Shown piece by piece: positions 1-59,732 of a stretch of 64,000 nt of DNA. Numbering within the stretch: the first letter of the stretch is position 1; each line of letters opens with the position of its first letter. The DNA comes from Candidatus Kapaibacterium sp. (GTDB lineage: Bacteria; Bacteroidota; Ignavibacteria; Kapaibacteriales; UBA2268). The stretch covers positions 169,132 to 233,131 of the forward strand of contig JAMLHE010000005.1 in NCBI GenBank assembly GCA_023957315.1. Reading direction: 5' to 3'. The notes beneath the pieces are model-generated. The model was given only the letters and a program-made list of their open reading frames with translations, searched no databases and was not told the DNA's origin. The translations under genes were made by a program, and so were the position numbers.

Positions 1-2370
1 TACTTGACAATAGTCAAGGGTTGTGTTTTGCTGATTCTACCGTCTGAAACTGTAATGTAATAAGCTCCTGATGCCAAATTCTCGATTGGGAGCGACAAAT
101 TAATCATATTATTTGCAGGAATAATATTTTCCGACGAAAATACAAATTGACCGAATTGGTTAAATATATCCACTCTGATATTCGACATATTGTACCTATC
201 ATCTTTTAGAACAATAGCCAGACTACCGTTTGTTGGATTAGGATAAATCAAATCATTATTGTTGCTTCTCGGATTCGTTTCAACAGATGAGGGAGAAACA
301 TTTATAAAAATAACTTCGCTTGAGTATGACCCGTCAGATTCATATGGTGTGACGAAAAGTGCTGATATTGGATCATCAAACCCCATTGCAACTTCGACTT
401 GTTCAATTTTGTGTCTGAGGGGAAGAACTTTATCTAGATAAGCTTGTCCATTAAATTCGTCTATATGGAAAGTCCTGACATCACTATTATAAGTAGGTAC
501 TAAAAGAACATCGAATATAGCGTATGGTTTACCGGGATATCCGGCGCCTTGTGTTCCAAGTCTGGTTGAACTAACAGAATTATCACTAAGTAAAAGTTGA
601 TGCAAAGAATAATCACCTTTTGAAGTGACAAAAAGAGATTGCAATATTGGTGAAAAAGTCAAATGATTTGCATTCAATCCGACATCAACAGTATTATCAA
701 GTGTAAAATATTCCATATGCTTAATTGCTCCAAACATCAATTGAGATTCTGAACCCGATTCATCTTTGTCAGTCAATACAGCCATACTTATGATTGGCTT
801 AGGATTCCCTTCTTCAAAATGAGGATAATACTTGAGGTCGCGAACATTCATACCGGCAAATACTCGTTGCAAAACCATACCCGACTGGGTATTAATCACC
901 AAAATAGAATCTGCACCATCAAATTGGACAGCAGCTAATAAATGACTTCCGGCTAAATCAAGTGCTACTGCATCAATTTGAGCTATTTCGGGGTCATCAA
1001 TTGCGAAATCGTCCAAATTATAAGAAGCGATATAGTTGTTATGAGGAATGTAAATTGTGCGATTTTCGCCATCAATAGCCGGTTTGAATGGCTCTTTCAA
1101 GCTGCCTAAAGGAAAAGTAAATTTATTTGTACTGACGCCTTCCTTATCAATTGTCCACCATGAAGGCGATTGCGAATTGTCACCAAGGCAAAAGACGTGA
1201 TATACTTCCTGCACCTCATCATAATACGAGCCGATTGGTCTAATACCAACTAATGGGAAAGATACACTCTCATCTTCTAAAGGTGAACTGCCTGAATATT
1301 TATTAATAATAATAAACTCTGAGTTTGAATAGAACCAATTATAGGAACTTAACATAAAAAGGAATTCATCATCAAGTAAAACTGTTTCAATTTTGCCTAA
1401 ACCGTTCGATACTACGTCATCTACACAACCTGTTTCGAGATTGATTACACGAGCATCGCCTTGATAAGTGGCTACAAACAATTTACCTTCCGAGACAAAA
1501 ATATCTCTTGGTCCATTGTAAGCTATTGTGCCTGTGTAGAATGTTCTCGTTTCATGAGTTTCAACATCAATCTCGACAACTTTATGCTCTCCATTGACTG
1601 ATACATACAATTTGCCATTATTGAATATCATATGATTCGGATTATTGCCGACAATAACTTCGTTTTCTAATTCAAAATCGGACATATGGCTAATAGGACC
1701 GAATTGGACAACTCCGTTTGCTTCTCCATATGGACCATTGGATAGTATTGCAATTGACAAGCCTGCCGATGATTGGTAGTAAACTGATTGCATTACGTTT
1801 TCTTTAGCAGTAACACTTTGCAAGACTTGGCCTGATGTAGTACTAAATACCTCAAGTTTGCCTACTTGCCCCGCTCCCGGGGTTACGGTCAACAAAAGAT
1901 GTGCACCTGCTATTGAAATAGAAGTAGCATTGATAAAGGCTACTTGGTCATCATGAATATCGAAATCAATCATATCGAAAGCTTTGATGACTCCTTCAAA
2001 CGGTATATAAACTACATCGTTTGCCCAATCGAATCCCGGACGAAAGACTTCGACACCGCTAGGAAATTTGAAAAAAGAGTCAAAGTCAAATTTCTTTTCA
2101 GCTTCGAACGTAGGGTCACCGGCTGATTCAACCTCTTTGATTATCCACCATGAAGGATATTCATCGCCTTCGTCAAGTTGTCCATTGTAATTTTCGTCCT
2201 TGCCTGCGCAAAAGACATGAATCGAACCATCGTTTGGAGATTTAACAATATGAACCGGTGTGAACCCTACTCCAAGCAAACTGTAATAAGAATACCCCTG
2301 TGCTGATAAAGGTGACTCAGATGCAATAAGTATGACCAATATAGCAGCAAAATAATAGAATTTAGCCATA
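1..2370 (-). CDS. Secreted beta-propeller (YVTN-like repeat) protein with T9SS/Por C-terminal sorting domain; 3'-partial (stop lies beyond window start)
   Basis: Manual translation of the minus strand. ATG at 2370-2368 with AGGAG 6 nt upstream, and the frame stays open to the window edge, so it is absent from the ORF track (no in-window stop). Signal peptide MAKFYYFAAILVILIASESPLSAQG. Two homologous halves (PSWWIIKEVE / PSWWTIDKEG; NGKLYV-type propeller repeats). C-terminus ...IYPNPTNGSLAIVL...YYITVSDGRISKTQPLTIVK fits the T9SS CTD pattern. Confidence 0.75.
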
Positions 2371-2499
2371 GTAACTCCTAAAAGTATATATAAAAATTTT
2401 TTCGTAAGAAAAATCGGTAAGTCATTTCGATTTGGCGGTACCAATTTCTCATTACGTTTGTTTACGCAAACGCTGTGTCAAATTACACTCCAATGAGTA

Positions 2500-2645
2500 T
2501 CGTCGAGTCTGTCTTCTGGCTTCGGTATCAACCTTTGCAACTTGCCTTCCCACCTAATCCGGTAGTGGCTGTCTTCCGACATAAGTTGCATCGTACTCCG
2601 TTACAGCGGCGTAACCGCACAGGATTCTCACCTGTTTCCTAAAAC
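2500..2645 (-). promoter_or_regulatory. Cobalamin (AdoCbl) riboswitch, oriented toward the gene starting at 2370 (minus)
   Basis: The minus-strand RNA reads AGGAAAC-AGGUGAGAAUCC-UGU-GCGGUUACGCCGC-UGUAACGG ... GCCACUACC (B12 box) ... GGUGGGAAGGC. Order and spacing match the cobalamin riboswitch consensus (AGGGAA / GGUGnnAAnUCC / GCGGnCCGC-ACUGUaA / GCCACUG / GGGAAGGC). The plus-strand coordinates of these blocks are 2634-2640, 2622-2632, 2598-2610, 2561-2569 and 2544-2551. Confidence 0.7.
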
Positions 2646-2827
2646 ATTTTCATGCTTTTTCACTCAACGACGCATACAAATATAATCAAAATTGTAATTT
2701 TTTCGACTTTAATTTGTTTATTACAATATGAAATGTGCAAATTTTTCTTTTGGTTATGTAAAGAAATGCACTTATTTTGAAATTTGCTAAATTTGAAAAT
2801 GAAGTTTTTAATTTTAATGGTAACAAT

Positions 2828-5608
2828 ATGAAACAATATGTCGTTTATTCTCGAATTATTTCTCTAATACTAACATTTATTTTACTCAGCTTACCCTCTT
2901 ACGCCAAAAAGCCGTTTACATTAGACGATGCGATGAAATTCAAGTCACTCCACAGTCCGGTTATCAGCGAAAACGGTTTTTGGGTGGCATATCACGTCTC
3001 ACCTGACAGAGGCGACCCAATCGGCTACATTCAATCCACAACTGATTCATCAAAATTTGAAATCGAAAGAGCCACTCGACCGGTTTTTTCACGTGACGAT
3101 GTCTATACAGGCTTTACGTGGGTGCCAAAATCACTCGAAGTGGAGAATGCAAAAACACCCAAAGACAAGCCCAAAAATGGCTTTGTATTAGTTAAAAATA
3201 CGACCGGAAGGATTGACAAAATCAAAGATGTCAAAAGTTTCGAGTTTTCCGAAGATTCAAAGTGGTGTGTATATCACAAGTTTGGGGATGAAGATAAAAA
3301 AAGCGAAAAATTGAAAAAGAAGCCAATTGGCTCTGAACTTGTGATTAGGCACTTATTCTCACAAACTGAAATTCGGGTGGATTACGTTACCGAATATGCT
3401 TTGGATAGTGCTGGCACATACATTTTTTATAGTGTTTCATCACCTGATGGCGAACGTGACGGCTTATACTTGCGGAGACTTCTCGAAGTATTTGCACCGG
3501 AATTTGCTGTAAACAAAGCCGAAAACACACTCTATTCGGGATTGGCATGGACTCCCCATACCAAAGCATTGGGATATATTTCCTCAACATTGACGACTGA
3601 AGGTGTTCCCAAAGAAGGCACTTTGATGATTTGGGAAGAAATCAGGGCTCAACAATATCAAATTGCTGTGACCCCTCAAACTGCTCCAAAGGGTTGGTAT
3701 ATACCATACAATAACAAAACCAAATGGAGCGATGATGGTCTGAGTCTTTTCATCGGGCTAAAACCTGATGCCGAGCGTGACACAATCGAAACTAAAGCAA
3801 TCATCTACACTGATGACTCTTTCTACAACATTGATTCGGTATTGACTAAATCTTCGGAGTTCATCTGGCATTGGGATGACCCACTTATCAGCTCCAATCA
3901 AGTTAATTGGTGGAATAAGAGCAAGGATAGAACTTTTACATCAGTGTATAATCTCCGTTCAAAAAGGTTCTTCCAACTGGCAGATTCGTCTTGCAATAAT
4001 GTCGTTGCTGCCGACAATTCAATTTACACAATTGGCTACGACAACACTCCTTACCAAAAGGAAATCACCTACAAGGGCTGGTTTTTCGATTTGTATGTAT
4101 TCAATTTGCAAACAGGAACCAAGAAAAAAATAGCGACAAGACTTGCCGAACAAGCATATTTGTCACCTCAAGGAAAACATGTATTGTTTTTCCAAAATAA
4201 ACATTGGCATATTTATGACACAAATAAAGATTCTTTAGCAAACATAACTATAAATGTCCCTATACCATTTTATGATGTTGACAACGATATTCCTGCCGAA
4301 GCCGGCAGCTACGGTATTGGAGGTTGGTTTCAAGATGACAATTATGTTTTGATCAACGAAAAATATGATTTCTACAAATTTTTCACTACAGATCCGGGTT
4401 CATTCATAAATATGTCTGGAACTTACGGACGCAAAAATCAACTACAATACCGATATACAAATTTAGACCCGAGAAATAAAGCTATATTGAATAAAGATAC
4501 CTTTTACGTGCATGTGTATTCGGAAAAGTCCAAATCTACAAACATGTTCTTTTTCGAGGAGCATATTGCAGGTGGTATCAACGTTACAACAGAAACCGGA
4601 AGGGGATTTTACGAGGAAAAGACATTCAAAATCCTTGGCAGGTCAAAAAATAACAAGTTGATTTTCTCACGAGAAAGTTTTGACGAATTTCCCGATATTT
4701 GGTTTACTGATAATCCAATGCTTGACAATCCAATAAGAATCACTGATATTAATCCTCAGATGAAGGATTTAAAATGGGGTACAACAGAAATTGTGAGATG
4801 GGTCTCACCACTGGGAGATTCATTAGATGGGTATATTATCAAACCCGACAATTTCGACCCCAAAAAGAAATATCCTGTGCTTGTGTATTATTACGAGCGA
4901 TTTTCTTCGAGAACATTTACATTTTACCAACCGCGAGTAAATCATCGCCCGATTTATCAATTATATCTGTCTGACGATTACTTAGTCTTTGTACCGGATG
5001 TTGTTTACAAAACGGGACGCCCGGGATATGATGCAACCGATGCTATTCTTTCGGGACTCAAAGTGCTGATTGACCGTGGAATTGCTGACCCCGATAGACT
5101 TTGTATTCAAGGGCATTCATGGGCAGGATACCAAACAGCATTTGTTATCACCCAAACGGATATGTTCAAAGCTGCGTCAGCAGGAGCTCCTGTAGGCAAT
5201 ATGACGAGTGCTTATAGTCAGATAAGAACCGAAAGCGGGCTTGCCCGACAATTCCAATACGAATCTCAGCAAAGCCGTATCGGTGGGAACTTGTGGGATT
5301 CTTTGGATGCTTATATGAATAATTCACCAGTGTTTCTTGCCCCAAAAATCAACACGCCTCTATTGATTTTACATGGAAACGAAGATGAAGCAGTCCCTTT
5401 TTCGCAAGGGGTAGAAATGTATCTTGCACTCAGAAGATTAGACAAACCTTGTGTGCTCGTAGAATACAACAAAGAGCCTCACCATCCAAGAAAATACGAA
5501 AACAAATTGGATTGGCAAATTAAAATGAAAGAGTGGTTCGACCACTACGTTTTGGGCAAAGAAGCTCCGAAATGGATTAAAGACGGCAAACCGTATTACG
5601 GGAAATAG
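2828..5608 (+). CDS. Prolyl oligopeptidase family (S9) serine peptidase with N-terminal beta-propeller, secreted
   Basis: C-terminal alpha/beta-hydrolase domain with GHSWAGY (GxSxG nucleophile), LHGNEDEAVPF (Asp) and EPHHP (His). Track ORF starts at 2777, but the signal peptide MKQYVVYSRIISLILTFILLSLPSYA begins at the ATG at 2828, which is the more likely start. Confidence 0.85.
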   Translation: MKQYVVYSRIISLILTFILLSLPSYAKKPFTLDDAMKFKSLHSPVISENGFWVAYHVSPDRGDPIGYIQSTTDSSKFEIERATRPVFSRDDVYTGFTWVPKSLEVENAKTPKDKPKNGFVLVKNTTGRIDKIKDVKSFEFSEDSKWCVYHKFGDEDKKSEKLKKKPIGSELVIRHLFSQTEIRVDYVTEYALDSAGTYIFYSVSSPDGERDGLYLRRLLEVFAPEFAVNKAENTLYSGLAWTPHTKALGYISSTLTTEGVPKEGTLMIWEEIRAQQYQIAVTPQTAPKGWYIPYNNKTKWSDDGLSLFIGLKPDAERDTIETKAIIYTDDSFYNIDSVLTKSSEFIWHWDDPLISSNQVNWWNKSKDRTFTSVYNLRSKRFFQLADSSCNNVVAADNSIYTIGYDNTPYQKEITYKGWFFDLYVFNLQTGTKKKIATRLAEQAYLSPQGKHVLFFQNKHWHIYDTNKDSLANITINVPIPFYDVDNDIPAEAGSYGIGGWFQDDNYVLINEKYDFYKFFTTDPGSFINMSGTYGRKNQLQYRYTNLDPRNKAILNKDTFYVHVYSEKSKSTNMFFFEEHIAGGINVTTETGRGFYEEKTFKILGRSKNNKLIFSRESFDEFPDIWFTDNPMLDNPIRITDINPQMKDLKWGTTEIVRWVSPLGDSLDGYIIKPDNFDPKKKYPVLVYYYERFSSRTFTFYQPRVNHRPIYQLYLSDDYLVFVPDVVYKTGRPGYDATDAILSGLKVLIDRGIADPDRLCIQGHSWAGYQTAFVITQTDMFKAASAGAPVGNMTSAYSQIRTESGLARQFQYESQQSRIGGNLWDSLDAYMNNSPVFLAPKINTPLLILHGNEDEAVPFSQGVEMYLALRRLDKPCVLVEYNKEPHHPRKYENKLDWQIKMKEWFDHYVLGKEAPKWIKDGKPYYGK

Positions 5609-14185: not shown

Positions 14186-15619
14186 ATGCAAATGCTTGAT
14201 GCTCATAAAAAGCAGTTTTTGTTCTCAGATAAATTGCTGATTGTCGGACTTATCCTTTCGAGTATTTTTTTCGCAGCGATAATATTAGCTTCGGTTTATT
14301 TTGATGTCATGCTTTATGTTTTGCCGGTTATTGCAATTGCCCCACTATTCTACTTTGTCACAGTAAAGCCGAAAATTTGGCTTTATACGCTTTTGGCACT
14401 TACGGGTATTTTCTTCCAAACAACCGGTGGCGGAATTTCGGCTATAGATGTTGTGATGGCAATATATTTCTTAGGCAGTATTCTTGCATGGTTCTTTCAT
14501 CGAATGTTTGTTATCAGAAAAAAAGTGGCTGAAAATATTGGTGATTGGTTAGTTCTCGCATTTTTCATCTTAATACCCCTGAATTTGATAATTGTCATAA
14601 TGAATGACGCAGACCCTGAGCTCTGGCTGCGTGAAACACTAATGATGGCAATTGTATTAATGTACTTCCCTATCCGAGATATTGTTCGTACCGAAGCTGA
14701 CATCAAGAAGGTCTTACTCGTTTTTGCGATTGTAATTGCCGGAGTTGGCACATATCAACTTTACGATTACTACATTAGGGTCACCGCCAAGATGGTTTAT
14801 GCTTATGAATTGATTCATTCGATGAGTACCAATCAAACTCTTTACACAGCAGCCTCATTGGTTGGTCTGATATTTTTGATTACAACTGAGAGCGTAAAAG
14901 TCAGGATTTTTTCAATAATTTTTACAGCAATGTCCGTTGCATTTTTATTTAGTACCTTTTCACGGACATTTTGGGTGATACTTGTTTTGTCGGTTTTTCT
15001 GATTTTTTTGATTGTACCATTTCAGAAAAAGATACGCATGGCTTTATCAATCGGATTCTTAGTCATTTTTATTGGCTCTTCGGCATTTTTGTTGATGAGA
15101 GATAATGTTACACTGCTTTATGAGGCATCGAAGAACAGATTACTTTCTTCAACAAAAGTTAGAGATGATATTTCATTAAGGTCAAGATTGATAGAATGGG
15201 AGCAGGTGTTGAATTTGATTTACGAAAACCCTCTCGGTGGAAACGGACTTGGAAAACATTTTCATTATTACGAACCGATTAGAATGCAGACCAAACATAC
15301 TTCTATCATTCATAACGGTTATTTGTTTCTGCCTTTTAGACTTGGTATTCCTTTATCGCTATTTTATTTTTCGTTTTTAACCTTCTATGTGTTCAAAACT
15401 ATTAATTTGTTGCCCAAAGCAAGAAGTGAATTTGAAAAGTCGCTTATTTACTCGATAATCGGGGTTTTCATGTCCTTATTTATATCAAATTACACAAGTT
15501 CGCAATTCTTTTATCGAGATGGAATATTTGTAACTGCAATGATAATTGCATTTATTTGTATTTTGGAAAGAATCATAAATCAAAAGAGTTTATCGGAATC
15601 AACGGCAGATGCAAATTAA
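14186..15619 (+). CDS. O-antigen ligase/polymerase family (Wzy_C) polytopic membrane protein
   Basis: About 10-12 predicted TM helices. Wzy_C-type motif HNGYLFLPFRLGIPL in a large periplasmic loop. Overlaps the mrdA start by 11 nt. Confidence 0.65.
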   Translation: MQMLDAHKKQFLFSDKLLIVGLILSSIFFAAIILASVYFDVMLYVLPVIAIAPLFYFVTVKPKIWLYTLLALTGIFFQTTGGGISAIDVVMAIYFLGSILAWFFHRMFVIRKKVAENIGDWLVLAFFILIPLNLIIVIMNDADPELWLRETLMMAIVLMYFPIRDIVRTEADIKKVLLVFAIVIAGVGTYQLYDYYIRVTAKMVYAYELIHSMSTNQTLYTAASLVGLIFLITTESVKVRIFSIIFTAMSVAFLFSTFSRTFWVILVLSVFLIFLIVPFQKKIRMALSIGFLVIFIGSSAFLLMRDNVTLLYEASKNRLLSSTKVRDDISLRSRLIEWEQVLNLIYENPLGGNGLGKHFHYYEPIRMQTKHTSIIHNGYLFLPFRLGIPLSLFYFSFLTFYVFKTINLLPKARSEFEKSLIYSIIGVFMSLFISNYTSSQFFYRDGIFVTAMIIAFICILERIINQKSLSESTADAN

Positions 15620-17575: not shown

Positions 17576-19840
17576 ATGGAGTTTAATATGCATCATTTCA
17601 AGTACCTTATTTCCGCATTAGCACTTGTTGCTTTTTTGTTCGTTTCATGCAGCGACAATTCGTCAAGCCCGGCTTTGACCGAAGATTTCACAGGTTTTGT
17701 GAAAAATTCCGAAGACCAAGCAATTGAAAATGCAAATATCGAAATATTCGGTTTGGAAGACAAATTGATTGCGAGCGATATCACAGATAAAGATGGCAAA
17801 TTCACTCTGACATCAATCCCAATCAAAAAGGAAGGATTGACTTACAGAGTCAGACATGCCGAATATGCCACAATCTCCGGAGACTTTGAAACATTTTACA
17901 ATGCACATAAATCTGAAGCCGGAAAATCTCCCGTTGTTTTCAAACTCCTTCAAGAAGATTCTTGCTGCGGAGATATGACCGTTCAAGTTTTAGATTATGA
18001 ATCCGGCGACCCGCTCGAAAATGTCGAAGTGAAAATTTCAAGAGGAAACGAATGGAGCGAAAAGAAATATACTGATGGCGAAGGCGTGCAAAACTTTGGT
18101 GCATTATGTGCCGGCAAACATTGGCTCAGATTCGCTCTCGAAGGCTACCAAGTAGTTGAAGATTATTTTGAAATCGTTGAGTGCGACACTTTGAATTTGA
18201 CAATTAAAATGAAAATCAAAGATGCTGATGAATGTTGCAACAACATTCTAAATTTCGTTGTCACAGATAAAGATGGAAATGCAATCAGCAATGCCAAAGT
18301 GAACTTATATCGTGATGGCAAGTTAGTAAAAGACGATAAAACTAATGAAGATGGCAAACTTACTTATAGCGAATTATGCAAAGGTAAATATACATTCGCT
18401 ATTTTAAAAGATAGCTACAAAGGAATTGAAGGATATCAAATCTTTGATTGTGAAGAAAATGTTACCGTTAACAAAACTTTAAGCAAGGAAGAAAACTTAG
18501 AATGTTGCGACAATACTTTAAATTTCATAATCAGTGATGAAAATGGCAATGCAATTAAGGACGCAAAAATCATACTTTACCGCAATGGTAAGGCTGTTCA
18601 TGATGGTAAAACAGATGACAATGGCAAAATCACTTTTGCTGAACTTTGCAAAGGAAAATATACCTATGCCATCCAAAAAGACACTTACAAAGGTGTTGAG
18701 GGATATCAAATTTTTGATTGCAAAGAAAACATTACAGTTGAAAAAACTTTGTATAAAGGCAATAATGAAGCATGTTGCGATAACAAATTGACTATTTTTG
18801 TCGGCGATGACGCCAATAATCCTTTAGCTAATGCAACAGTACTGCTTTACCGTGATGGGAAAGTTGCAAAAGAAGGGAAAACCGGCAATGACGGTTATGT
18901 TTATTTCGCTGAACTTTGCAAAGGAAAATATAGTATATTAATCAAGAGCGAAGGTTTCAAACCGTTTGAATTCCATCATACTTTCGGATGCGAAGAAGAT
19001 ATTAAATACAATAAGACTTTGGTTAAAGACCAAGGCGAAGATTGTTGCGGAGTGTTGAAATTGACTGTAATTGATAAAACTACAAACACTCCAATTGCCA
19101 ACGCAGAAGTCAAAATCACACGCGCTGATAATAAATTCTACGACATTAAGAAAAGCGGCAATGACGGTAGTGTCGAATTCACTAAGCTTTGCATGAGCAA
19201 ATACTGGGTTCGCGTAGCTGCTGAAAATTACAAAGTTGTTGAAGATTATGTTTATATCGAAAATTGCGATAAAGCTGTTGAAAAAACTATCAAATTGGAA
19301 TCAAAAAACAACACTGAATGTTGCGACAACACTATCAATTTTATCGTAAAAGATGCCGATGGCAATCCTTTGAGCGGAGTTAAAATCAAGTTGATTAAAG
19401 ACAATACAGTAAAGAAAACTTTGGAAACGCAAAACGGTACCGCTTCTACAGGCAAAATCATGTGCAAAGGAAGCTATAAAGTTGTGATGATGAAAGAAGG
19501 CTATCAAACAATTGAATTTCAAACAAGCGTAAATTGCAACGAAGACATCACAATTGATAAAAAACTCGAAGGTGGAAAATGTTGCGATGCTCAAATCAAA
19601 ATCGCTGTTAAAGATGCCGATTCTGAAGAATCGTTAAACGGTGCTAAGGTCAGACTTTGGAAAGATGGCAAAGTTGAACGCGAAGGTACAGTCGAAAACG
19701 GCTACGTTTGGTTTAAAGAACTCTGCGAAGGCAAATACGGCGTTGACATTATGTACGAAGGATACAATGGAATGGAATTCCAGTATGAAATCAGTTGCAA
19801 AAATGACAATTATTTAGTAAAGAAATTGAGCAAAAAATAA
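17576..19840 (+). CDS. Lipoprotein made of ~7-8 tandem Cys-containing CarboxypepD_reg-like repeats
   Basis: Lipobox LFVSC. About 90-aa repeats with the pattern CCDN-LNF-V-D-DGN-I-AK--LYRDGK...DGK-TF-ELCKGKY...GYQIFDC-EN-TV-KTL, with four conserved Cys per repeat. Confidence 0.7.
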   Translation: MEFNMHHFKYLISALALVAFLFVSCSDNSSSPALTEDFTGFVKNSEDQAIENANIEIFGLEDKLIASDITDKDGKFTLTSIPIKKEGLTYRVRHAEYATISGDFETFYNAHKSEAGKSPVVFKLLQEDSCCGDMTVQVLDYESGDPLENVEVKISRGNEWSEKKYTDGEGVQNFGALCAGKHWLRFALEGYQVVEDYFEIVECDTLNLTIKMKIKDADECCNNILNFVVTDKDGNAISNAKVNLYRDGKLVKDDKTNEDGKLTYSELCKGKYTFAILKDSYKGIEGYQIFDCEENVTVNKTLSKEENLECCDNTLNFIISDENGNAIKDAKIILYRNGKAVHDGKTDDNGKITFAELCKGKYTYAIQKDTYKGVEGYQIFDCKENITVEKTLYKGNNEACCDNKLTIFVGDDANNPLANATVLLYRDGKVAKEGKTGNDGYVYFAELCKGKYSILIKSEGFKPFEFHHTFGCEEDIKYNKTLVKDQGEDCCGVLKLTVIDKTTNTPIANAEVKITRADNKFYDIKKSGNDGSVEFTKLCMSKYWVRVAAENYKVVEDYVYIENCDKAVEKTIKLESKNNTECCDNTINFIVKDADGNPLSGVKIKLIKDNTVKKTLETQNGTASTGKIMCKGSYKVVMMKEGYQTIEFQTSVNCNEDITIDKKLEGGKCCDAQIKIAVKDADSEESLNGAKVRLWKDGKVEREGTVENGYVWFKELCEGKYGVDIMYEGYNGMEFQYEISCKNDNYLVKKLSKK

Positions 19841-30646: not shown

Positions 30647-30719
<73 letters not shown>

Positions 30720-33616: not shown

Positions 33617-36235
33617 TTATCTTACAACGCTCAATTTGAAATACTCAGTTGAGTTCCCTGAAGTAGCAACTACCAAATAGTTGCCCACATTGACTTTGGT
33701 ACCGTTTAGATTTTGCAAATTTATATCTAAGCTTAGTTTTTCGCTACCTGAAATTCCATCGTGCAAAATAGCAATGACATTGCCTGCAATGTCGTACAAT
33801 TTTATTATAGTGCGCTTGCCAAGTGTAGTTCCGAATTCGATATTGACCGCATCTGACGCAGGATTTGGGAATGCTTTCAAACGGTTAGAGCTTAATGTTT
33901 GATTTTCTTCAACCGAAGTTGTTATCAAATGTGATATTTCAAAATCCCAAATACCTCTGCCATAAGTAGCAAATCGTGCGATTTTTTTGTCGTCCAAATA
34001 GTTTACCGACCAATAATTTTGGTCAGGGCTTTCCAATCCGCCGATATGATACCATTTATTGTGATTTTTTATGTAGATATACGGTCCTGACGAAGTAGCA
34101 GCAAAGAGCACCTCTTCGTCTGCAGAAGCAGCCAAATCATATGCCATAGTCGGTGGCATCCCGTTATTCATAGGCTCGAATGAAAGTCCATTATTACGAG
34201 ATACGTAAATCGGTGCGGATGAATAGCCACTACCGGCAATATAAATTGTGCCGAGATGTACTCTTGATGGTAGAATTTTTGTTCCGTGAAGATAATTAAT
34301 CCCGGGACCTGTAAATCCTATAGTCTCGGTCCAAGTATCACCTCTGTTCGTAGAATAATAAAATTTTCCCAATCTTGTCAGTACATACATGTAGTTTATA
34401 TCCAACTCGGAAATACCAAGAGCAGTAACATCATTTACACTATTGTCTTGGTCAAATTTATAAGGTAGTTCACCGGCAGAAATTCCTCCGCCCGGGAGAT
34501 ATTCAAGTCTCCAAAGAGTCGAGAAATTCCCCGAACCGCCCGGAGCAATGTAAGCAAGACGCGGGTACCCGGGTACTGCAACTATTGGTGGCATCCAAAC
34601 TCTGTTGTTGGAAGATTGTGGGAAATTCCAAGTGTAGCGTTGATTAGACTTAGCAGCGTCAGGGTAAATCATTGCAAAGCCGGGATATACCGTCCATAGA
34701 CTTTTGCCATAATCTCCTGAGGTAATGCTGCCGTAATCACCGCTTATAGTTTGCTCGAAATCAAGTACATCATCTCGAAAGGGTTCGCTGCGTTGGAAGC
34801 CTTGGTCTTGGCTGCCGGCATATATAATATGATTTGGCGTGTTATATGTATAAATTGAATAATATTGAGAGACGTTGAGTTTGCTTAGCGAAATATTTAC
34901 GATATTTTCAGAATCCCCATAAGTACGATAAATGCCACCATCAGTAGATATCAAGATGATTTCTTCACCTTCGGGAGAAATGAAGGATTTGATTTCCGGA
35001 ATATCTGCATGAAGTTTATTAAGCGGGTCGTTGTAATAATCATACCATTCGTTGATTAACGACCAGGAAAGCCCACTGTTTGTGCTTTTGAAACAATTTA
35101 CGCCACCAATGAACAACATATTAGGGTTTGATTTCGAGACGCCAAAGCTGTTGCACATGAACATATCGGTGGGCGATTCACCGCCATCATCCCATGATTT
35201 GCCGCCATCCGTGGATTTTTGTATATACCGTTTGGATTCATTACCGAGCCTGATAGCTAAATAAACCACAGTTTTACCGTTGCTTACTGCACCTTTAGCA
35301 TAAAATCGAGGGTTATCAAGAATTCCGAAATTCGGGAAAAGCGATTGGAATTTGATTTTCTCATCATTTGCAACAGCATTTATAACAAATGTCGAATCGC
35401 GATGAAACAAATACAAGTTTGGGTCGCCGGAATCACTGCCCCAAATTTCAATTGCTTCTTTACGATTATGAATTCTGAATGCATTAAAAGATTCGCCATT
35501 ATCAGTAGAATAATATACACTCGTCTTTTGCCCATTGACAGTTTCATTTGCAAGAAGGTACAAAATGTCCGAATTGTCTTTTTCAACTGCACCCTGATTT
35601 GAGTTTACTTTTACGGCAATCCCACGAATAATATTGCCGGTGGATTCTACATTTTGTAGTCCATTTGATTTAAGCCAAGTTAAGCCCTCGTCATCGGAAT
35701 AATAGACATTACGTCGGTCGAACACTGTGATTCGGTTTTTATCACCGACTTTGAGTATTCTAATATCTCGGATGTTGAATTGAAATGAATTATTCAGGCA
35801 AGTCCAATCTTCGCCATCGAGTGTGCCGCGCCAAACGTTTCCACCCGCTGAAGCAGCATAAATCAATCCACGACTAAAATCAATATCGCAACCGTGAATT
35901 CTACCGGATTGGTTATTACTTCCTCTCTCCTTCCACTTGCCAACAACATTGCCATTAGCAGCGACAGTATTCAAGAACAAGTTCGGGTCTTTAAAGCCGA
36001 GCTCTTGTCGAATCTGATTAATTTCATTGCGACGATATTCGCGTACTTCGCGCTCGATGATTTTCCAATCAACTCCGGGCTCGGCACGGTGCATGTTTTC
36101 TAACCATTCACGTCTTTGTTTGTGAAAATCGGGATTTGACTCGCTTCGTTTGACTCTGTCAGGAGTGACTGCTTGAGCAAATAATTCGATGCTAATAAAT
36201 GAAAATAAGAGAATTATGAGAGTTAACTTTTTCAT
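33617..36235 (-). CDS. Secreted BNR/Asp-box repeat protein with T9SS C-terminal sorting domain
   Basis: Multiple SxDxGxTW repeats (YSDDEGLTW, STDGGKSW, STNSGLSW, STNRGDTW). Signal peptide. C-terminus ...KAFPNPASDAVNIEF...YFKLSVVR is CTD-like. Confidence 0.75.
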   Translation of the reverse strand: MKKLTLIILLFSFISIELFAQAVTPDRVKRSESNPDFHKQRREWLENMHRAEPGVDWKIIEREVREYRRNEINQIRQELGFKDPNLFLNTVAANGNVVGKWKERGSNNQSGRIHGCDIDFSRGLIYAASAGGNVWRGTLDGEDWTCLNNSFQFNIRDIRILKVGDKNRITVFDRRNVYYSDDEGLTWLKSNGLQNVESTGNIIRGIAVKVNSNQGAVEKDNSDILYLLANETVNGQKTSVYYSTDNGESFNAFRIHNRKEAIEIWGSDSGDPNLYLFHRDSTFVINAVANDEKIKFQSLFPNFGILDNPRFYAKGAVSNGKTVVYLAIRLGNESKRYIQKSTDGGKSWDDGGESPTDMFMCNSFGVSKSNPNMLFIGGVNCFKSTNSGLSWSLINEWYDYYNDPLNKLHADIPEIKSFISPEGEEIILISTDGGIYRTYGDSENIVNISLSKLNVSQYYSIYTYNTPNHIIYAGSQDQGFQRSEPFRDDVLDFEQTISGDYGSITSGDYGKSLWTVYPGFAMIYPDAAKSNQRYTWNFPQSSNNRVWMPPIVAVPGYPRLAYIAPGGSGNFSTLWRLEYLPGGGISAGELPYKFDQDNSVNDVTALGISELDINYMYVLTRLGKFYYSTNRGDTWTETIGFTGPGINYLHGTKILPSRVHLGTIYIAGSGYSSAPIYVSRNNGLSFEPMNNGMPPTMAYDLAASADEEVLFAATSSGPYIYIKNHNKWYHIGGLESPDQNYWSVNYLDDKKIARFATYGRGIWDFEISHLITTSVEENQTLSSNRLKAFPNPASDAVNIEFGTTLGKRTIIKLYDIAGNVIAILHDGISGSEKLSLDINLQNLNGTKVNVGNYLVVATSGNSTEYFKLSVVR

Positions 36236-37801: not shown

Positions 37802-40800
37802 ATGAATTGTCGTAAACATTTTTTCGTAGGATTGAACATTGTCGTCGTGATGCTGTTATCAGGGCTGAATATTTCATTCGGTGATGAAAGCGAAAACGGA
37901 CGAAAATTTTATATGACTTTTTTACCCAACTTCCACAACAACAAGTGGTCACAAGAACAGCAATTGAAGTATGGTGACTCGCTTTATATAATAATCTATG
38001 CGGATACAGAACCCACAAACGGTACGATTACATATTCAGATAATAACAGTATAAAGAACGTTCATTCTTTTACGATTCCAAATCCCGACATACCCCATAT
38101 ATTTTCAATTGCATATAATAAGTTTGAATTGATAGGCTATAATGACGCCGGAAGAGTAAATAATAATTCCGATAATGAAAAAATCAGTAAAAAATCATTT
38201 TACATAGAAACTGACAAAAATGTAATTGTATTAGGACATAATCAGGCATATCTAACGAGCGAATCGTTTAATGTATTGCCGGAAGAATTATTAGCAGAAG
38301 ACTATATTGTAATGGCATATAACTCGAACGGCATATCAGGCCCTCCTCCGGGAGTTTCGAATAGCTTAACTGTAACCCCATCTCAGTTTGCAATTATTGC
38401 AACAGAAGATAATACTGTTGTAGATATTTTTCCGAGTGCACCTACATATGCCAATCGCTTGAACCCACAAAGGATAACATTGGACAGATCTGATGTTTAC
38501 TTAGTCCAAGCATATGGATTTCAACAAGATCGTCATAGTGATTTGACAGGTACCGAAGTTCGTTCCGATAAACCTATTGCTATCGTTGCCGGTCAACAAA
38601 GAGCAAGAGTAGCATTTGATTTGCCTCAGCAGGATGTTTCACGCGATATGCTGATGGAGCAAATGCCACCTATAAAATACTGGAATATGTCATTTCCGGT
38701 AATACCTTTGCCCGATCCTGTGTCGCAATTTGATTCACGTCATTTGAAAGATAAATTACGAGTTCTCGCTGCTTTTGATGGCACAGAACTACTTGTTGGC
38801 GATGTTTTGATAGCTCAATTGGACAAAGGGGAATACTATGAAACTGATATAATTGAGCCATTCATGTTGAATTCAACAGCACCTGTTTTACCTATGATTT
38901 ACCGCAGGTCAGCTCAACTATCAAATATGGGCAACTCAGTAGGAGACCCGCTGATGCAGATTGTACCATCAATTGACCAATTTAGCAATCGTCAGAAATT
39001 TTATTCACTTGAAGTTAAAGAACCCAAATTTTCTATGGGTGGTCCGGTTCAACATCAGAGAGTTTATACAGAGCATTTTGCTGTTATCATAAGTCCTAAT
39101 AATAACTTCGGTAACATTACCTTAAATGGAACAAATGTTAACACGAATTTATTCAAACCTATAATAGAAAGTGATTTTTCATATTCGATACTTTCAGTCA
39201 ATCCCGGAACTAATCTGCTAAATTCAATTGAAAATGTGGGGCTCTTCGTATGCGGTTATGGCTATGCTAATTCGTACGGGTATTTTACAGGAACTTTGCG
39301 TGCTCGAGATGATTGGGAACCACCATTGCTCAAATCATCGTCGGATTGTTTCGAGATTGAAGGAATCGTAACGGACAACGGAGTAAAAGAAATTAGAGTC
39401 CAAGATGGTACGGCATTCAACATATATGTTGAAATTGCTCCTTTTACCGAAGGAGATACTACAGTTTCGTTCAAAGCAAAGATTATTAATCCCTTTTTGG
39501 ATGGACATTTCAAATTGATTGCTTCGGATATGATACTTCAGCAAATCAGAAAAGAAATGAGCATTCCCGGATTCACGATTGCTGTAAATGGAACTCAATA
39601 TACCGGGGAAACTATTGAAGTACAAAAGAGAATTCGCTCAGACATCAAATATTGTATGGATTATACTTTGTATAATTACGGTCAATTCCCCCAAGAAGTT
39701 TATATGAAAGCTTTTGAAAGTGAAAACTTTGTCAGCGATTTCCCGAATTCCGTGAATTTAGAACCCGGCGAAAGTTTTACATTCGAAGTATGCTTCAATA
39801 GCGAAGTTGACGTTATCGAAGTGGAAGATTTAATTTTATATAATGATTGCGTAGAACGAAATTTTGCTACTATGGAATTCGAATCCAAAGAAGACCAATA
39901 CGAACCAATCATACTTGCAACACCCGACCCGTGTAATCAATACGTCTCGCTTAAAATAACTGACGAAGATGATTGGGAATGGGGATTGGAGGAAGTCATC
40001 TTTGAAAATGTTGAGAATGTTGAGATTGAAGTTACCAATCCCGGAGTGTATTCTCGAGAAATTATGGCACGAGTAATTGACCCGTACCAAGATGCTTATT
40101 TTATGCTTTCAGTTAAAGATTCCTCCGGCAAAGTTGCAAGTTACGAAGCAATATTGCCAGGTTTTACTCTCGAATTTGAAGATTTAACACTTTCCGGCTC
40201 ATCAGACCAATATGAAGACTATGAATTCTCCAACACTATGATTGGTGGTTTAAATTGTTCACAATTCAGAATCAAAAACTATGGAGGATTTGACTTAGAT
40301 TTGGACGATGTATTTATGATGAAAAATAGCTTGTTTACAGTGCCCCAAGCTCAAATGCCATTGATAATTAAGCCCGGCACAAGTATGGATTTGACCCTTT
40401 GTTACCGCCCCGGCATATTTGTTGACGAAATTGATTATGACACACTGAAATTGACACATAATTGCATTGACCGTTTTGTGCCCGTTTCGGGATTGGCGTT
40501 AAGTATCGAATTTAATGAAGATTCAAGATGCAACGTTCCATTGTCGATTAGCTCGTCGAGTGTCCCGAATACAACATATTTATCAAGCAGTACACCGAAT
40601 CCTACCCAAGGAATCGCAAAAATCGAGTTTGGACTTCCGCAAGATTCATATGTCGAAATCACAGTTTATTCAATCTTAGGGCAAGAAATTTTGAACCTTG
40701 TAAATAGCGAGCTAAAAGCAGGACATTTTGAAATGGATTTAGATTTGAATAATCAACCATCCGGAATATATATTTATACTTTGCAAACGGATTCTACAAT

Positions 40801-40831
40801 AATCACAAAAACATTGCTAATCAATCGCTAA
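37802..40831 (+). CDS. Large secreted protein of unknown function with T9SS C-terminal sorting domain
   Basis: Signal peptide MNCRKHFFVGLNIVVVMLLSGLNISFG. 1009 aa. C-terminus NPTQGIAKIEFGLPQDSYVEITVYSILGQEI...GIYIYTLQTDSTIITKTLLINR fits the CTD pattern. Confidence 0.7.
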   Translation: MNCRKHFFVGLNIVVVMLLSGLNISFGDESENGRKFYMTFLPNFHNNKWSQEQQLKYGDSLYIIIYADTEPTNGTITYSDNNSIKNVHSFTIPNPDIPHIFSIAYNKFELIGYNDAGRVNNNSDNEKISKKSFYIETDKNVIVLGHNQAYLTSESFNVLPEELLAEDYIVMAYNSNGISGPPPGVSNSLTVTPSQFAIIATEDNTVVDIFPSAPTYANRLNPQRITLDRSDVYLVQAYGFQQDRHSDLTGTEVRSDKPIAIVAGQQRARVAFDLPQQDVSRDMLMEQMPPIKYWNMSFPVIPLPDPVSQFDSRHLKDKLRVLAAFDGTELLVGDVLIAQLDKGEYYETDIIEPFMLNSTAPVLPMIYRRSAQLSNMGNSVGDPLMQIVPSIDQFSNRQKFYSLEVKEPKFSMGGPVQHQRVYTEHFAVIISPNNNFGNITLNGTNVNTNLFKPIIESDFSYSILSVNPGTNLLNSIENVGLFVCGYGYANSYGYFTGTLRARDDWEPPLLKSSSDCFEIEGIVTDNGVKEIRVQDGTAFNIYVEIAPFTEGDTTVSFKAKIINPFLDGHFKLIASDMILQQIRKEMSIPGFTIAVNGTQYTGETIEVQKRIRSDIKYCMDYTLYNYGQFPQEVYMKAFESENFVSDFPNSVNLEPGESFTFEVCFNSEVDVIEVEDLILYNDCVERNFATMEFESKEDQYEPIILATPDPCNQYVSLKITDEDDWEWGLEEVIFENVENVEIEVTNPGVYSREIMARVIDPYQDAYFMLSVKDSSGKVASYEAILPGFTLEFEDLTLSGSSDQYEDYEFSNTMIGGLNCSQFRIKNYGGFDLDLDDVFMMKNSLFTVPQAQMPLIIKPGTSMDLTLCYRPGIFVDEIDYDTLKLTHNCIDRFVPVSGLALSIEFNEDSRCNVPLSISSSSVPNTTYLSSSTPNPTQGIAKIEFGLPQDSYVEITVYSILGQEILNLVNSELKAGHFEMDLDLNNQPSGIYIYTLQTDSTIITKTLLINR

Positions 40832-42849: not shown

Positions 42850-44481
42850 TCACATCTTCACAAACATCTGCGTCCGGCTGCTGATACGTATGTAATACAC
42901 ACCACGAGAGAGATGCGAAATATCAATTCTTAAATTCCCGCTCCCTGAGCCTGTCGAAGGGAGACGGGTGAGGTTCACACATTCACCAAGAGTGTTGTAG
43001 ATTTTAATTTCAGCAGTTTCATCAACCCCACGGTTAACCGTAGGGTTGATAGCAGCATTAATTTCAATATATTCGCTTGCCGGATTGGGGTGGATAAAGG
43101 ATACAGAGTTTGACTCGCTTACGCTTACATTGTTCAAGGTCGTGAAATTCCATGTTGGTGACCAAATCATTTTTTTGTTATGGCGGAGACCGACGCGCCA
43201 AAAATAACTCGTAAGATATTTAAAATCATTTAAAGTCAATTGATTTGATTTAAGATTCCCTTGATAAAAGATATTTTGGAAATTATTATCCTCAGCAATT
43301 TGGAAGTGATATGAATCTAATTGTGACGAAGGTTCCCACTCAAAATTTATTTCATCGCTTTTTTGTTGACTTCCATGGACGGGAGTTGTTAGCCGGATTG
43401 ATGCGGGTATAGGCTGAAATTTAAAAAACATCCCTTCATATTTATATATATTGCCGTACCACGTACCCACTACCGGCTTCTTGCCTGCCCAATCAATGCG
43501 CATGGTTAATGGTGCTTCGTCTATCATCTGCTGTGGTAATGGATGATAGTTCCAAGTATTACCCCCATCATTAGTCATAACAATTTTACCATACTGACCA
43601 ACTGCGACACCATTCAATTCATCATAAAATTTAATTGATTGAAGACCAAATTTTGGCTCAACAATTGTGTCAAGCACAGCGACCCAATTTTTACCTCTGT
43701 CTCGAGTTCGGTAAATTACATCTGACCGATAATGTGCTATACCAAGCAGTTCACTACCAACCAAAAAAGCTATACTGTCATTAACAATATCTAATTCTCT
43801 AAAACCTAAATATGTAGAATCAACTTTAAAATCACATAATCTCACCCAATTTTGAGTTTTAATATTAAAATTTACATACTGTTTAGAAAAATTATCGCCC
43901 GTTTTAGCTAAAACATAAAACCCTAAAGTTTCCTCATTAACTTTATCAATGCAATATATTTCGCTTCGTATAAGCATGGTATCGGCTATTGTATAAGTTT
44001 CCCACCCGTCTTCTGTTATATAAATATAGTGATGAAATGTATCATCAGACCATTGTGTATCTGTAATAATTCCACGCAAAGAATCAAACATAAAAATATT
44101 AATTGGGTTAGAATCTTCTGCAATTAAGATTTTACTAAATGATTTACCACGGTCTGTACTCTTTGTTACATATTTCCCTTCCGAGAAAATTGCGAAATAA
44201 TTGTCTTTATCGGGTGCGGAAAAATCACGTATATTCAGTAAATATTTAGGTTCTTCATTCATTGGGTCCGCTTTATAGGTCAAAGACCAAGTATCACCAG
44301 CATCATAGCTATGATAAAGCTCTATTAGTCCGGTTTGCTGAACCACAGATACGCACATCCCATCAAAGCATACCAAAGGATTAATTTGTCCCGTATCTAA
44401 ATTCTTTGTATATTTCCATTCAGAAGCATATGTAGCTATTCTTGCAATGAATAGTAAGAATATTATAATTAGTAGTTTCAT
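42850..44481 (-). CDS. Secreted BNR-repeat/FN3 protein with T9SS C-terminal sorting domain
   Basis: Signal peptide. Asp-box repeats (STDRGKSF, TRDRGKNW, TNDGGNTW). C-terminus ...FIHPNPASEYIEINA...GVYYIRISSRTQMFVKM. Confidence 0.7.
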   Translation of the reverse strand: MKLLIIIFLLFIARIATYASEWKYTKNLDTGQINPLVCFDGMCVSVVQQTGLIELYHSYDAGDTWSLTYKADPMNEEPKYLLNIRDFSAPDKDNYFAIFSEGKYVTKSTDRGKSFSKILIAEDSNPINIFMFDSLRGIITDTQWSDDTFHHYIYITEDGWETYTIADTMLIRSEIYCIDKVNEETLGFYVLAKTGDNFSKQYVNFNIKTQNWVRLCDFKVDSTYLGFRELDIVNDSIAFLVGSELLGIAHYRSDVIYRTRDRGKNWVAVLDTIVEPKFGLQSIKFYDELNGVAVGQYGKIVMTNDGGNTWNYHPLPQQMIDEAPLTMRIDWAGKKPVVGTWYGNIYKYEGMFFKFQPIPASIRLTTPVHGSQQKSDEINFEWEPSSQLDSYHFQIAEDNNFQNIFYQGNLKSNQLTLNDFKYLTSYFWRVGLRHNKKMIWSPTWNFTTLNNVSVSESNSVSFIHPNPASEYIEINAAINPTVNRGVDETAEIKIYNTLGECVNLTRLPSTGSGSGNLRIDISHLSRGVYYIRISSRTQMFVKM

Positions 44482-55185: not shown

Positions 55186-55216
55186 ACAAGACTTTTTCCC
55201 GTTAGCTTGGATTTCA

Positions 55217-57322: not shown

Positions 57323-57372
57323 AACACCCCCTAACCCCCTCTTAAAAGAGGGGGAAATGGGAGTAATTAAAA

Positions 57373-59544: not shown

Positions 59545-59732
59545 ATAAACTCCAATAAAAATAAGAAAAAAAGTAGATTTCAATATAAAAAATAATTCTC
59601 GTAGTAATTCAAATTTAACTATTTCAACAAATACCAAATTAAGTACAATTACTTAATTAACATATAATATACATTATAATTTACAATTATAACTATAAAA
59701 CACAATATATTTCTAATAAATCTTATGCCAAA

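Follow-up and report, generated by a model that had tools for sequence, protein, structure and literature searches.

A cobalamin riboswitch at the head of a putative corrinoid-uptake operon whose first gene encodes a BtuG-like tandem propeller with a type IX secretion signal

What does a cobalamin riboswitch control when the first gene behind it encodes a secreted beta-propeller rather than a transporter? The question arises at the left end of a 64,000-nucleotide stretch of DNA (the window) from Candidatus Kapaibacterium sp., a Kapabacteria-type bacterium of the Bacteroidota in the broad sense. The initial annotation saw there a riboswitch acting on a protein exported by the type IX secretion system (T9SS), hereafter X, rather than on a canonical B12 transporter. 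We propose, with a probability of roughly 0.6, that an operon for corrinoid uptake, repressed by cobalamin, begins in this region, with X as its outer capture stage.

A covariance model search of the leader placed a cobalamin riboswitch aptamer (RF00174) at 2489–2682 on the minus strand, with 66.5 bits for a gathering score of 31.5 (E = 3.2e-14). The match, read from 2682 to 2489, spans the full model (positions 1–189) and lies 119 nt upstream of the 789-aa coding sequence of X, on the same strand; the riboswitch of the initial annotation is confirmed. The B12 box GCCACUACC (2569–2561, minus strand) aligns with the consensus core GCCACUG of RF00174 and occurs together with GGUGAGAAUCC, CUGUAA and GGGAAGGC, in the right order and all aligned to the consensus. 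The L5 loop, UUACG (2610–2614, minus strand), and its closing stem GCGG/CCGC (2618–2606) were read from the sequence. Each of the 12 other loci examined also has RF00174 at the start of the homologous operon, with 66.9 to 103 bits, which makes 13 of 13 distinct loci, over protein identities ranging from 86% down to about 23%. The divergent Peptidase_S9 gene (2777–5608, plus strand) was considered as a target and rejected, since its strand is not that of the aptamer.

A consensus scan found a promoter-like site at 2691–2720 on the minus strand (TAAACA, 18 nt spacer, TACAAT; 9 matches out of 12), from which transcription would start near the 5' end of the aptamer. This site is weak, with 5 of its kind in the region for 2.9 expected and a consensus that may not be the one of the host lineage, and such a match is no evidence of function. 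At the other end of the leader, a Shine-Dalgarno sequence, AGGAG (2375–2379, minus strand, read from the sequence), stands 5 nt before the ATG (2369–2367). It is AGGAG too in four close loci, and of the GAGG type in L001 and L006.

Two hairpins lie between aptamer and gene. Hairpin 1, which is P13-like (2454–2473, minus strand), has a GCGUUUG/CAAACGU stem and a CGUAAA loop (2466–2461), and was present in the RNAalifold consensus of 6 loci with 7 pairs, 2 of them supported by compensatory changes. Its loop, CGUAA(A), is complementary to the UUACG of aptamer L5. When the L5 motif UUNCG is set against the loop motif CGN(N)AA in 7 lineages, the central pair covaries through four pair types without a mismatch, as read by hand and not by a statistical tool: A:U in the window, L011 and L002, U:A in L016, G:C in L015 and L017, and G:U in L013. 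Hairpin 2, GAGAAAUUGGU ... ACCGAUUUUUC (2408–2450, minus strand), had 11 pairs by RNAalifold, of which 4 show compensatory changes. Its 5' arm shares bases with AAUGAG (2453–2448), for which CUCAUU (2497–2492), just past P1, is an alternative partner. Hairpin 2 may act as a terminator or as an element sequestering the Shine-Dalgarno sequence. A terminator scan of the leader found no canonical intrinsic terminator, and an ACUC:GGAGU pairing with the Shine-Dalgarno sequence, seen in single-sequence folds, was not adopted because its conservation across loci was not clear. For these two reasons the off-switch step is uncertain.

The gene itself is complete at 3–2369 on the minus strand: its 789 codons are uninterrupted from the ATG at 2369 to base 3, and the window edge truncates only the stop codon. 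A pseudogene or frameshift was rejected, since the frame is open and of the same length as in relatives. A database protein of 789 aa from a Candidatus Kapabacteria MAG, P0001, has the same sequence. Its translation begins with a non-lipoprotein Sec signal peptide (residues 1–23; 2301–2369), recognised by its hydrophobic core and an SA|Q cleavage site; no lipobox Cys is present, nor any Cys within the first 50 residues. In the AF2 model, a helix (residues 2–16) and a low-confidence linker occupy this end. Two seven-bladed beta-propellers follow, and the full-length model has 28 strands. The N-terminal propeller (residues 25–360; 1290–2297, minus strand) is BtuG-like and circularly permuted, and the C-terminal one (residues 368–692; 294–1268, minus strand) is a diverged copy of it: the two halves are 31% identical (E = 3e-31), and the C-terminal propeller with the domain that follows it scored 213.4 bits against the family profile. 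The net charges of the two propellers, -28 and -23, make both strongly acidic.

Residues 705–789 (3–257, minus strand) form a T9SS type-A C-terminal sorting domain (CTD). Over residues 708–783 of 789, it matched PF18962 with 40.2 bits (cut-off 27) and TIGR04183 with 31.5 bits (cut-off 23), and the solved CTD 8GLJ_D was matched weakly. AF2 modelled it as a separate beta-sandwich behind a disordered linker (693–704). Four other PF18962 proteins are encoded within the 64-kb window, an indirect sign that the organism uses T9SS. The signal peptide, duplicated propeller and sorting domain of the initial annotation were therefore all recovered. Its description of the propeller as YVTN-like was not: the TIGR02276 repeat model gave no match to X, for which NCBIfam yielded only matches of the Por_Secre_tail type.

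As the window ends at the stop codon of X, the genes that follow it were looked for in related loci. A TonB-dependent receptor (plug and barrel) adjoins X in every one of them that has flanking sequence (11 gene tables); the contigs of L010 and L011 stop short of the gene next to X. The receptor gene starts about 0–50 nt downstream of X in most loci, and lies upstream of X in L014. The usual order is X, about 12 nt, a BtuB-like transporter, and then a BtuH-like protein with a T9SS CTD and a BtuG lipoprotein. In the closest relative, L018, X is 86% identical, the order is X, TonB-dependent receptor, 306-aa protein, DUF5074 protein, and the upstream genes are those of the window (Peptidase_S9, Cupin_5, a 375-aa gene, BatA, TldD/PmbA). 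Genes of the BtuB, BtuH and BtuG types thus probably lie downstream of X in the window genome as well. The absence of a canonical transporter is an artefact of the window edge, and the receptor beside X in its relatives indicates that X opens an operon for B12 uptake and is not a stand-alone secreted factor. A "non-canonical riboswitch target" found at the edge of a window calls for checking the neighbouring genes first.

The identity of these neighbours was examined by homology. The best PDB match of the receptor was BtuB1 of B. thetaiotaomicron (8BLW_A, E = 4.5e-40, nearly full length), with other BtuBs next. Pfam recognised Plug and TonB_dep_Rec_b-barrel, and the best NCBIfam model was TonB-B12, at 137.6 bits, far under its equivalog cut-off of 599.7. 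The fourth gene encodes a BtuG (E = 2e-23 to 8PTF, 8PTD and 8BLW_B), with a lipobox. For the third, a profile reached the H-domain of BtuG1 with E = 2.4e-4 and BtuH2 (7BIZ) with E = 0.05, and its invariant Asn aligns with Asn399, a B12-contact residue (PMC8941943); this gene is putatively BtuH-like.

What, then, is X? Searched alone against Pfam, NCBIfam and the PDB, X returned only its T9SS CTD, with neither DUF5074 nor a BtuG structure, so that profiles were needed. BLASTP of X against the BtuG of the operon gave nothing, and fold searches did not single out BtuG among seven-bladed propellers. With a profile of the X family, the best 13 PDB matches were all of the BtuG type (E = 3e-28 to 3e-13), BtuG1 having E = 3e-28 and BtuG2 E = 6e-18. 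Aligned by hhalign, the X family and the operon BtuGs gave a probability of 98–99% (E = 6.5e-18). An HMM built from the operon BtuGs matched 69 of 157 X-family members, and DUF5074 was matched directly in 5 of 45 tandem members. By these profiles, through which the link is transitive, each of the two propellers in X is related to BtuG as a distant homologue with a circular permutation, and X is a BtuG homologue lying outside the curated DUF5074 family. What had been offered as an analogy with BtuG is, on this evidence, true homology. The permutation appears in the alignment: family positions 188–366 correspond to BtuG 46–228, family positions 26–178 to BtuG2 212–360, and a full-length BtuG aligns over the junction between the two X repeats. 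BtuG blades 5–7 come ahead of blades 1–4 in X.

The corrin contacts of BtuG2 include E55, F58, Q93, N107, Y196, Q219 and Y239 (PMC13616437). Among single-domain members of the family (n = 92), conservation holds at 7 of 8 mapped positions: the columns of E55, F58, Q93 and N107 gave E 67, aromatic 83, N 87 and N 77, and those of Y196, Q219 and Y239 gave Y/F 91, Q 64 and aromatic 89, the S195/Y196 mapping being tentative, as it was made by eye from the BtuG1 alignment. Few columns of the family alignment are better conserved than these. In the same order, the N-terminal domain of X has N211, Y214, N245, N259, Y61, T37 and Y347. About five of the seven are kept in kind (Y214, N245, N259, Y61, Y347), and two are changed (Glu to Asn211, Gln to Thr37). 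The C-terminal domain, with D534, E537, N568, K584 and R377 at mapped positions, has mostly lost them and is degenerate. Taking these elements together, it seems reasonable to infer that X captures corrinoids. Most likely, judging from sequence, it is an accessory capture protein exported by T9SS and feeding BtuB/BtuG.

Such a protein could work as follows. When intracellular cobalamin is low, the operon would be expressed. Sec would take X across the inner membrane and T9SS across the outer one, after which X would stay attached to the surface or be released. Its acidic N-terminal propeller would bind corrinoids on the face used by BtuG and hand them over to the BtuB-BtuG gate, X forming an outer capture stage akin to BtuH and BtuJ, the accessory B12-binding lipoproteins of Bacteroides. 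Once cobalamin is replete, the ligand would stabilise the L5-L13 kissing loop, the downstream hairpins would switch, and expression would be turned off, at the level of transcription or of translation.

Among the other explanations, the one that survives best, unlikely as we find it, makes X the lid of BtuB itself: a surface BtuG replacement or second copy, anchored by T9SS, with one active and one structural propeller. X is homologous to BtuG, and always adjacent or nearly adjacent to the receptor where flanking sequence exists. Moreover, L001, L015 and L017 carry X and the transporter with no separate DUF5074 btuG, which argues for a direct role of X with BtuB. However, in the lineage of the window this role is already filled, since the same operon encodes a bona fide BtuG lipoprotein. 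BtuG docks by an N-terminal lipid anchor and a linker running along the barrel (PMC10404256). X, a circular permutant, lacks both, and any anchor that it has would be at its C-terminal end.

We regard as somewhat less probable again the possibility that X does not bind corrinoids, and is a BtuG-derived propeller merely co-regulated with the uptake genes, as a scaffold, as the receptor of a B12-carrier protein from another organism or as an enzyme acting on corrinoid conjugates. Beta-propellers are a functionally versatile fold, X departs from the consensus at two contact positions of its N-terminal domain and at most of those of its C-terminal domain, and the Pfam DUF5074 model does not recognise it. 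On the other hand, the strong conservation of the corrin-aligned columns would be surprising for a pocket that had fallen out of use, and very divergent members keep the riboswitch (13 of 13 loci) and, where flanks exist, the BtuB-like receptor. No catalytic-family signature was detected in X or its family with Pfam and NCBIfam. Finally, a secreted regulon member standing alone and unconnected to TonB-dependent uptake, as first annotated, is very improbable: no transporter gene follows X within the 64-kb window, but the window stops there, inside the stop codon of X, and in the related loci with flanking sequence the receptor is always next to it.

A further reading can be considered, though only tentatively: X and its single-domain relatives could form an undescribed class of T9SS-secreted "corrinophores", BtuG-derived permuted propellers which, released or held on long tethers, would collect or steal corrinoids at some distance and supply BtuB/BtuG with them. 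The stealing component, already evoked as corrinoid piracy in the initial annotation, has no specific support here. We found no B12-related T9SS cargo in the literature searched, and no paper describing the X family, whose clusters (at least 224) all carry either no name or a generic one.

Competition for vitamin B12 shapes microbial communities. Nearly all that is known so far of the machinery for extracellular B12 capture comes from gut Bacteroides, in which all of its components are lipoproteins. The present loci indicate that uncultured relatives from the environment carry the same BtuB/BtuG/BtuH core, and that a BtuH-like protein and a BtuG-like propeller that is permuted and duplicated, both putative binding modules, have been moved to the type IX secretion pathway. 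Should the propeller bind corrinoids, T9SS would gain a new physiological role and the protein clusters of the X family a function. A natural circular permutant of BtuG would also become available, and would help to explain the pocket of this propeller and its femtomolar affinity. If corrinophores do exist, T9SS would be a route of vitamin acquisition in environmental Bacteroidota (Kapabacteria, Ignavibacteria and relatives), in parallel with the lipoprotein and vesicle relay of gut Bacteroides.

It remains to compare the locus with known systems. Classical cobalamin riboswitches (env8 and btuB-type structures) have an L5-L13 kissing-loop expression platform. The element of the window resembles them by its aptamer core, its B12 box, the downstream hairpin with a loop complementary to L5, and its position upstream of a btuB operon. 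It differs in that the regulatory hairpin is about 75 nt upstream of the Shine-Dalgarno sequence, with a second conserved hairpin in between.

The BtuGs of B. thetaiotaomicron (BtuG1/2/3; DUF5074, "YncE family"; 8BLW_B, 8BMY/8BMZ, 8BMX_D) share with X the acidic seven-bladed propeller and, as seen in relatives with flanking sequence, a place next to btuB under a cobalamin riboswitch. The acidic propellers of X recall the acidic face by which BtuG2 attracts B12 (PMC10404256). Unlike BtuG, which has an N-terminal lipid anchor, X lacks a lipobox and is fitted instead with a T9SS type-A CTD; it is circularly permuted and tandemly duplicated, the second copy being degenerate, and in relatives of the window lineage a regular BtuG accompanies it within the same operon.

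BtuH and BtuJ of Bacteroides are riboswitch-controlled extracellular corrinoid-binding lipoproteins encoded in btuB loci, and their presumed task is to catch cobamides and pass them on to BtuG/BtuB (PMC8941943; PMC13616437). This is the role proposed here for X, and the third gene of the operon is itself probably BtuH-like. The folds of BtuH (a globular domain) and BtuJ (DUF4465) are nevertheless unrelated to the propeller of X, and both are lipoproteins, partly borne by vesicles, whereas X is a predicted T9SS cargo. Lastly, the haemophores of the HmuY/HusA type in P. gingivalis are secreted or surface proteins for nutrient capture, HmuY being a lipoprotein and not a CTD cargo. Ligand and fold differ from those of X, but the concept would be the same, a secreted or surface binding protein feeding a TonB-dependent receptor.

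The frame on which the initial annotation relied (1-2370) is uninterrupted: on the minus strand (3-2369), 789 codons without a stop reach base 3, and the window's final two bases, TA, begin the stop codon. The CDS is complete, because an identical 789-aa entry exists among public proteins, where it is assigned to a Candidatus Kapabacteria MAG and labelled a T9SS type-A sorting-domain protein. Against Pfam and NCBIfam, the C-terminal sorting domain first seen by eye scored above both cut-offs (PF18962, 40.2 bits; TIGR04183, 31.5 bits), and nothing was recognised beyond it. The internal duplication was borne out as well, the two halves sharing 31% identity across 274 residues (E 3e-31). The AlphaFold2 model, of high confidence (pLDDT 88.6, pTM 0.81), consists of a signal helix, two all-beta domains of 28 strands each (N-domain, residues 25-360; C-domain, 368-692) and a separate C-terminal beta-sandwich. 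Modelled by itself, the N-domain reached a pLDDT of 94.7.

Four further PF18962 proteins are encoded in the window, namely BNR/sortilin-like (33617-36235, -), IgGFc-binding-like (37802-40831, +), BNR-like (42850-44481, -) and a WD40 propeller (51949-53856, -), and the organism appears to use T9SS heavily. Four large co-oriented ORFs of 437, 701, 754 and 1416 aa (53872-63983, -), which lie immediately upstream of the genes for the WD40-CTD protein and for an OmpA-family protein, gave no Pfam match at E <= 1e-5; they form an uncharacterised envelope gene cluster. Elsewhere, a 754-aa lipoprotein-like protein (17576-19840, +) carries about 8 CarboxypepD_reg-like repeats, each with conserved Cys motifs (ECCDN ... 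LCKGKY), and a tRNA gene (30647-30719, +; Rfam tRNA, 66.1 bits) has the anticodon loop CUCAUAA, giving CAU, of Met or Ile2 type.

When the entire window was scanned with Rfam, the single cis-regulatory match was the Cobalamin riboswitch aptamer RF00174 at 2682-2489 (-), scoring 66.5 bits where the gathering cut-off is 31.5 (E 3.2e-14, model 1-189). This confirms the riboswitch proposed from the sequence, every cited block of which was found. The aptamer does lie upstream of the ATG, but the spacing, first put at about 90 nt, is 119 nt from the aptamer 3' end to the ATG at 2369, which is preceded by a Shine-Dalgarno AGGAG (2379-2375, -). Sixteen nucleotides downstream of the aptamer stands a conserved hairpin (stem 2473-2454, loop CGUAAA 2466-2461, -), to whose loop the L5 loop UUACG (2614-2610, -) is exactly complementary. 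Across loci, L5 reads UUNCG and the hairpin loop CGN(N)AA, with a central pair that is A:U in the window, in L002 and in L011 (about 23% protein identity), U:A in L016, G:C in L015 and L017, and G:U in L013. An L5-L13 kissing loop is a feature of known cobalamin riboswitch structures, and the covariation marks these loops as its putative signature. The 5' arm of a second conserved hairpin (2450-2408, -) overlaps AAUGAG (2453-2448), which could alternatively pair with CUCAUU (2497-2492), beside P1. The terminator scan found no canonical intrinsic terminator in the leader, and repression may act at the level of transcription or of translation. The octamer TATATTTG (2677-2684, -) fits TAnnTTTG, the Bacteroidota-type -7 promoter motif, and shares bases with the unpaired positions that open the aptamer match. 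Since transcription from it would start within the 5' strand of P1 or right at it, TATATTTG is probably not the promoter in use.

Because the gene stops right at the window edge, its neighbours were read in relatives. The closest, locus L018 (86% identical homologue), has the window's genes beyond the riboswitch (Peptidase_S9, Cupin_5, a 375-aa gene, BatA, TldD/PmbA); downstream, after an 11-nt gap, it encodes a 663-aa TonB-dependent receptor, a 306-aa protein and a 364-aa DUF5074 protein. The same four-gene order recurs in loci whose propeller protein is 79%, 78%, 58% and 38% identical. The layout is also found beside single-domain relatives, in L013 and likewise in L016, where no Pfam match is recorded for genes 3 and 4, and a very distant member (L014) has the same four families in a different order. 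An above-threshold cobalamin riboswitch heads the operon in all 13 distinct loci. The initial claim that the riboswitch serves this protein in place of a canonical B12 transporter does not hold, a BtuB-like receptor gene standing beside it in relatives, L018 included. The apparent absence of a transporter is an artefact of the window end, as in relatives the propeller gene continues into receptor, BtuH-like and BtuG genes; riboswitch and operon logic are both ordinary. Three loci carrying the same operon, L008 (78% identical protein), L010 and L012, bear GenBank titles of Desulfobulbaceae and Hyphomicrobiales MAGs, probably by mis-binning; L012 and L002 are one contig, and the genes flanking L002 agree with those of the window.

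Among solved structures, the receptor matches B. thetaiotaomicron BtuB1 best (8BLW_A, E 4.5e-40, over almost the whole length), with other BtuBs next; its top NCBIfam model is TonB-B12, with a score far below the equivalog cut-off. A lipobox is present in the DUF5074 protein, which matches BtuG structures at E 2e-23, BtuG being the B12-binding, seven-bladed propeller lid of BtuB (PMC10404256). The third gene, outside the window (L005:14370-15290 in a related locus; orthologues in L001, L002, L003, L006, L013 and L014), encodes the 306-aa protein (about 300 aa in orthologues), which has a T9SS CTD and whose N-terminal domain is strongly conserved (YFPQNIFGPP, DFIIFENAF, FAEPA.VAVS.DG, GFDLDA). 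A seven-orthologue profile matched BtuG1 in its BtuH-like domain (E 2.4e-4) and also BtuH2 itself (7BIZ, E 0.05), and the invariant Asn of FENAF aligns with Asn399, a B12 contact of BtuH2 (PMC8941943). On these alignments, the product looks like a T9SS-routed BtuH homologue. In L001, the called ORF of this gene opens with a duplicated peptide (14397-14700; CHSERSEESMF ... ILRSAQND). Such peptides are typical where a repeated intergenic DNA element gets translated, and the true start is probably further downstream than called.

An exhaustive HMMER search gathered 224 cluster representatives of the propeller family (E <= 0.001), in two architectures, tandem (about 780 aa) and single-domain (about 450 aa); the CTD is present in 44 of the 45 tandem members scanned and in the single-domain consensus. 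The BtuG analogy drawn initially proved, by profile comparison, to be distant homology. An HMM from the operons' own BtuG genes matched 69/157 members, and hhalign of the family against these BtuGs gave 98-99% probability (E down to 6.5e-18). When a profile of 92 single-domain members was searched against all PDB sequences, the best 13 matches were all BtuG-type proteins (8BLW_B, E 3e-28; BtuG2, 8BMY/8BN0, E ~6e-18; next 8BMX_D, 8BAZ, 3DSM, 8P97_B and others). Family positions 188-366 align to BtuG 46-228 (blades 1-4) and 26-178 to BtuG2 212-360, in a consistently permuted register, and in tandem proteins the full-length BtuG alignment spans the repeat junction (hhalign). Each repeat is thus a circular permutant of BtuG, the outcome expected if a duplicated gene then lost its outer half-copies.

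After Sec export and T9SS translocation, the protein would capture corrinoids extracellularly and supply the BtuB-BtuG gate; T9SS type-A cargo either ends up bound covalently to lipopolysaccharide on the surface or is released. In the main rival reading, the protein itself caps BtuB, at least where the genome has no separate btuG. A separate DUF5074 gene is absent from L001 (propeller gene, receptor and 300-aa gene) and from L015 and L017, where the 300-aa gene is absent too and only propeller gene and receptor are present. The conserved linkage, together with loci where it is the sole BtuG-like gene beside the receptor, points to a direct role in corrinoid uptake.

A second alternative supposes that the protein has lost corrinoid binding. 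In BtuG2, according to a recent review (PMC13616437), the residues hydrogen-bonding to or stacking on the corrinoid are E55, F58, Q93, N107, S131, S195, Y196, Q219 and Y239; the 8BN0 alignment follows the review's numbering, and E55, F58, Q93, N107 and S131 land where expected. Among the 92 single-domain members, E55 is E in 67 (N-domain N211, C-domain D534), F58 aromatic in 83 (Y214, E537), Q93 N in 87 (N245, N568), N107 N in 77 (N259, K584) and Q219 Q in 64 (T37, R377). S131 is G in 84, the Ser not being kept (G286; C-domain alignment unreliable), and Y239 is aromatic in 89 (Y61; C-domain loop deleted, by eye). Mapped by eye, Y196 is Y/F in 91 (Y347; not mapped in the C-domain) and S195 falls in a variable column (S 26, T 20, D 19). 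The mapped contact columns rank among the best-conserved of the family. In the window, the N-domain matches in kind at about 5/7 positions; the C-domain retains the Asn alone. Both propellers are strongly acidic (net charge -28 and -23), as is the B12-attracting face of BtuG2 (PMC10404256). Taken from sequence, the indications of corrinoid binding are reasonable.

In full-text searches, no paper joining type IX secretion to cobalamin (vitamin B12), BtuG or riboswitches described T9SS-routed B12-uptake proteins of this type, a search on DUF5074 by itself found none either, and the family members looked up are nameless or generically named ('hypothetical protein', 'WD40 repeat protein'). What is new is a BtuG-derived propeller, permuted and often duplicated, on T9SS instead of lipoprotein export, and alongside it a BtuH-like protein routed likewise, the hosts of the pair being uncultured Kapabacteria/Ignavibacteria-type Bacteroidota. 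The proposed capture step would be analogous to the relay of BtuJ, BtuH and BtuG described in B. thetaiotaomicron (PMC13616437).
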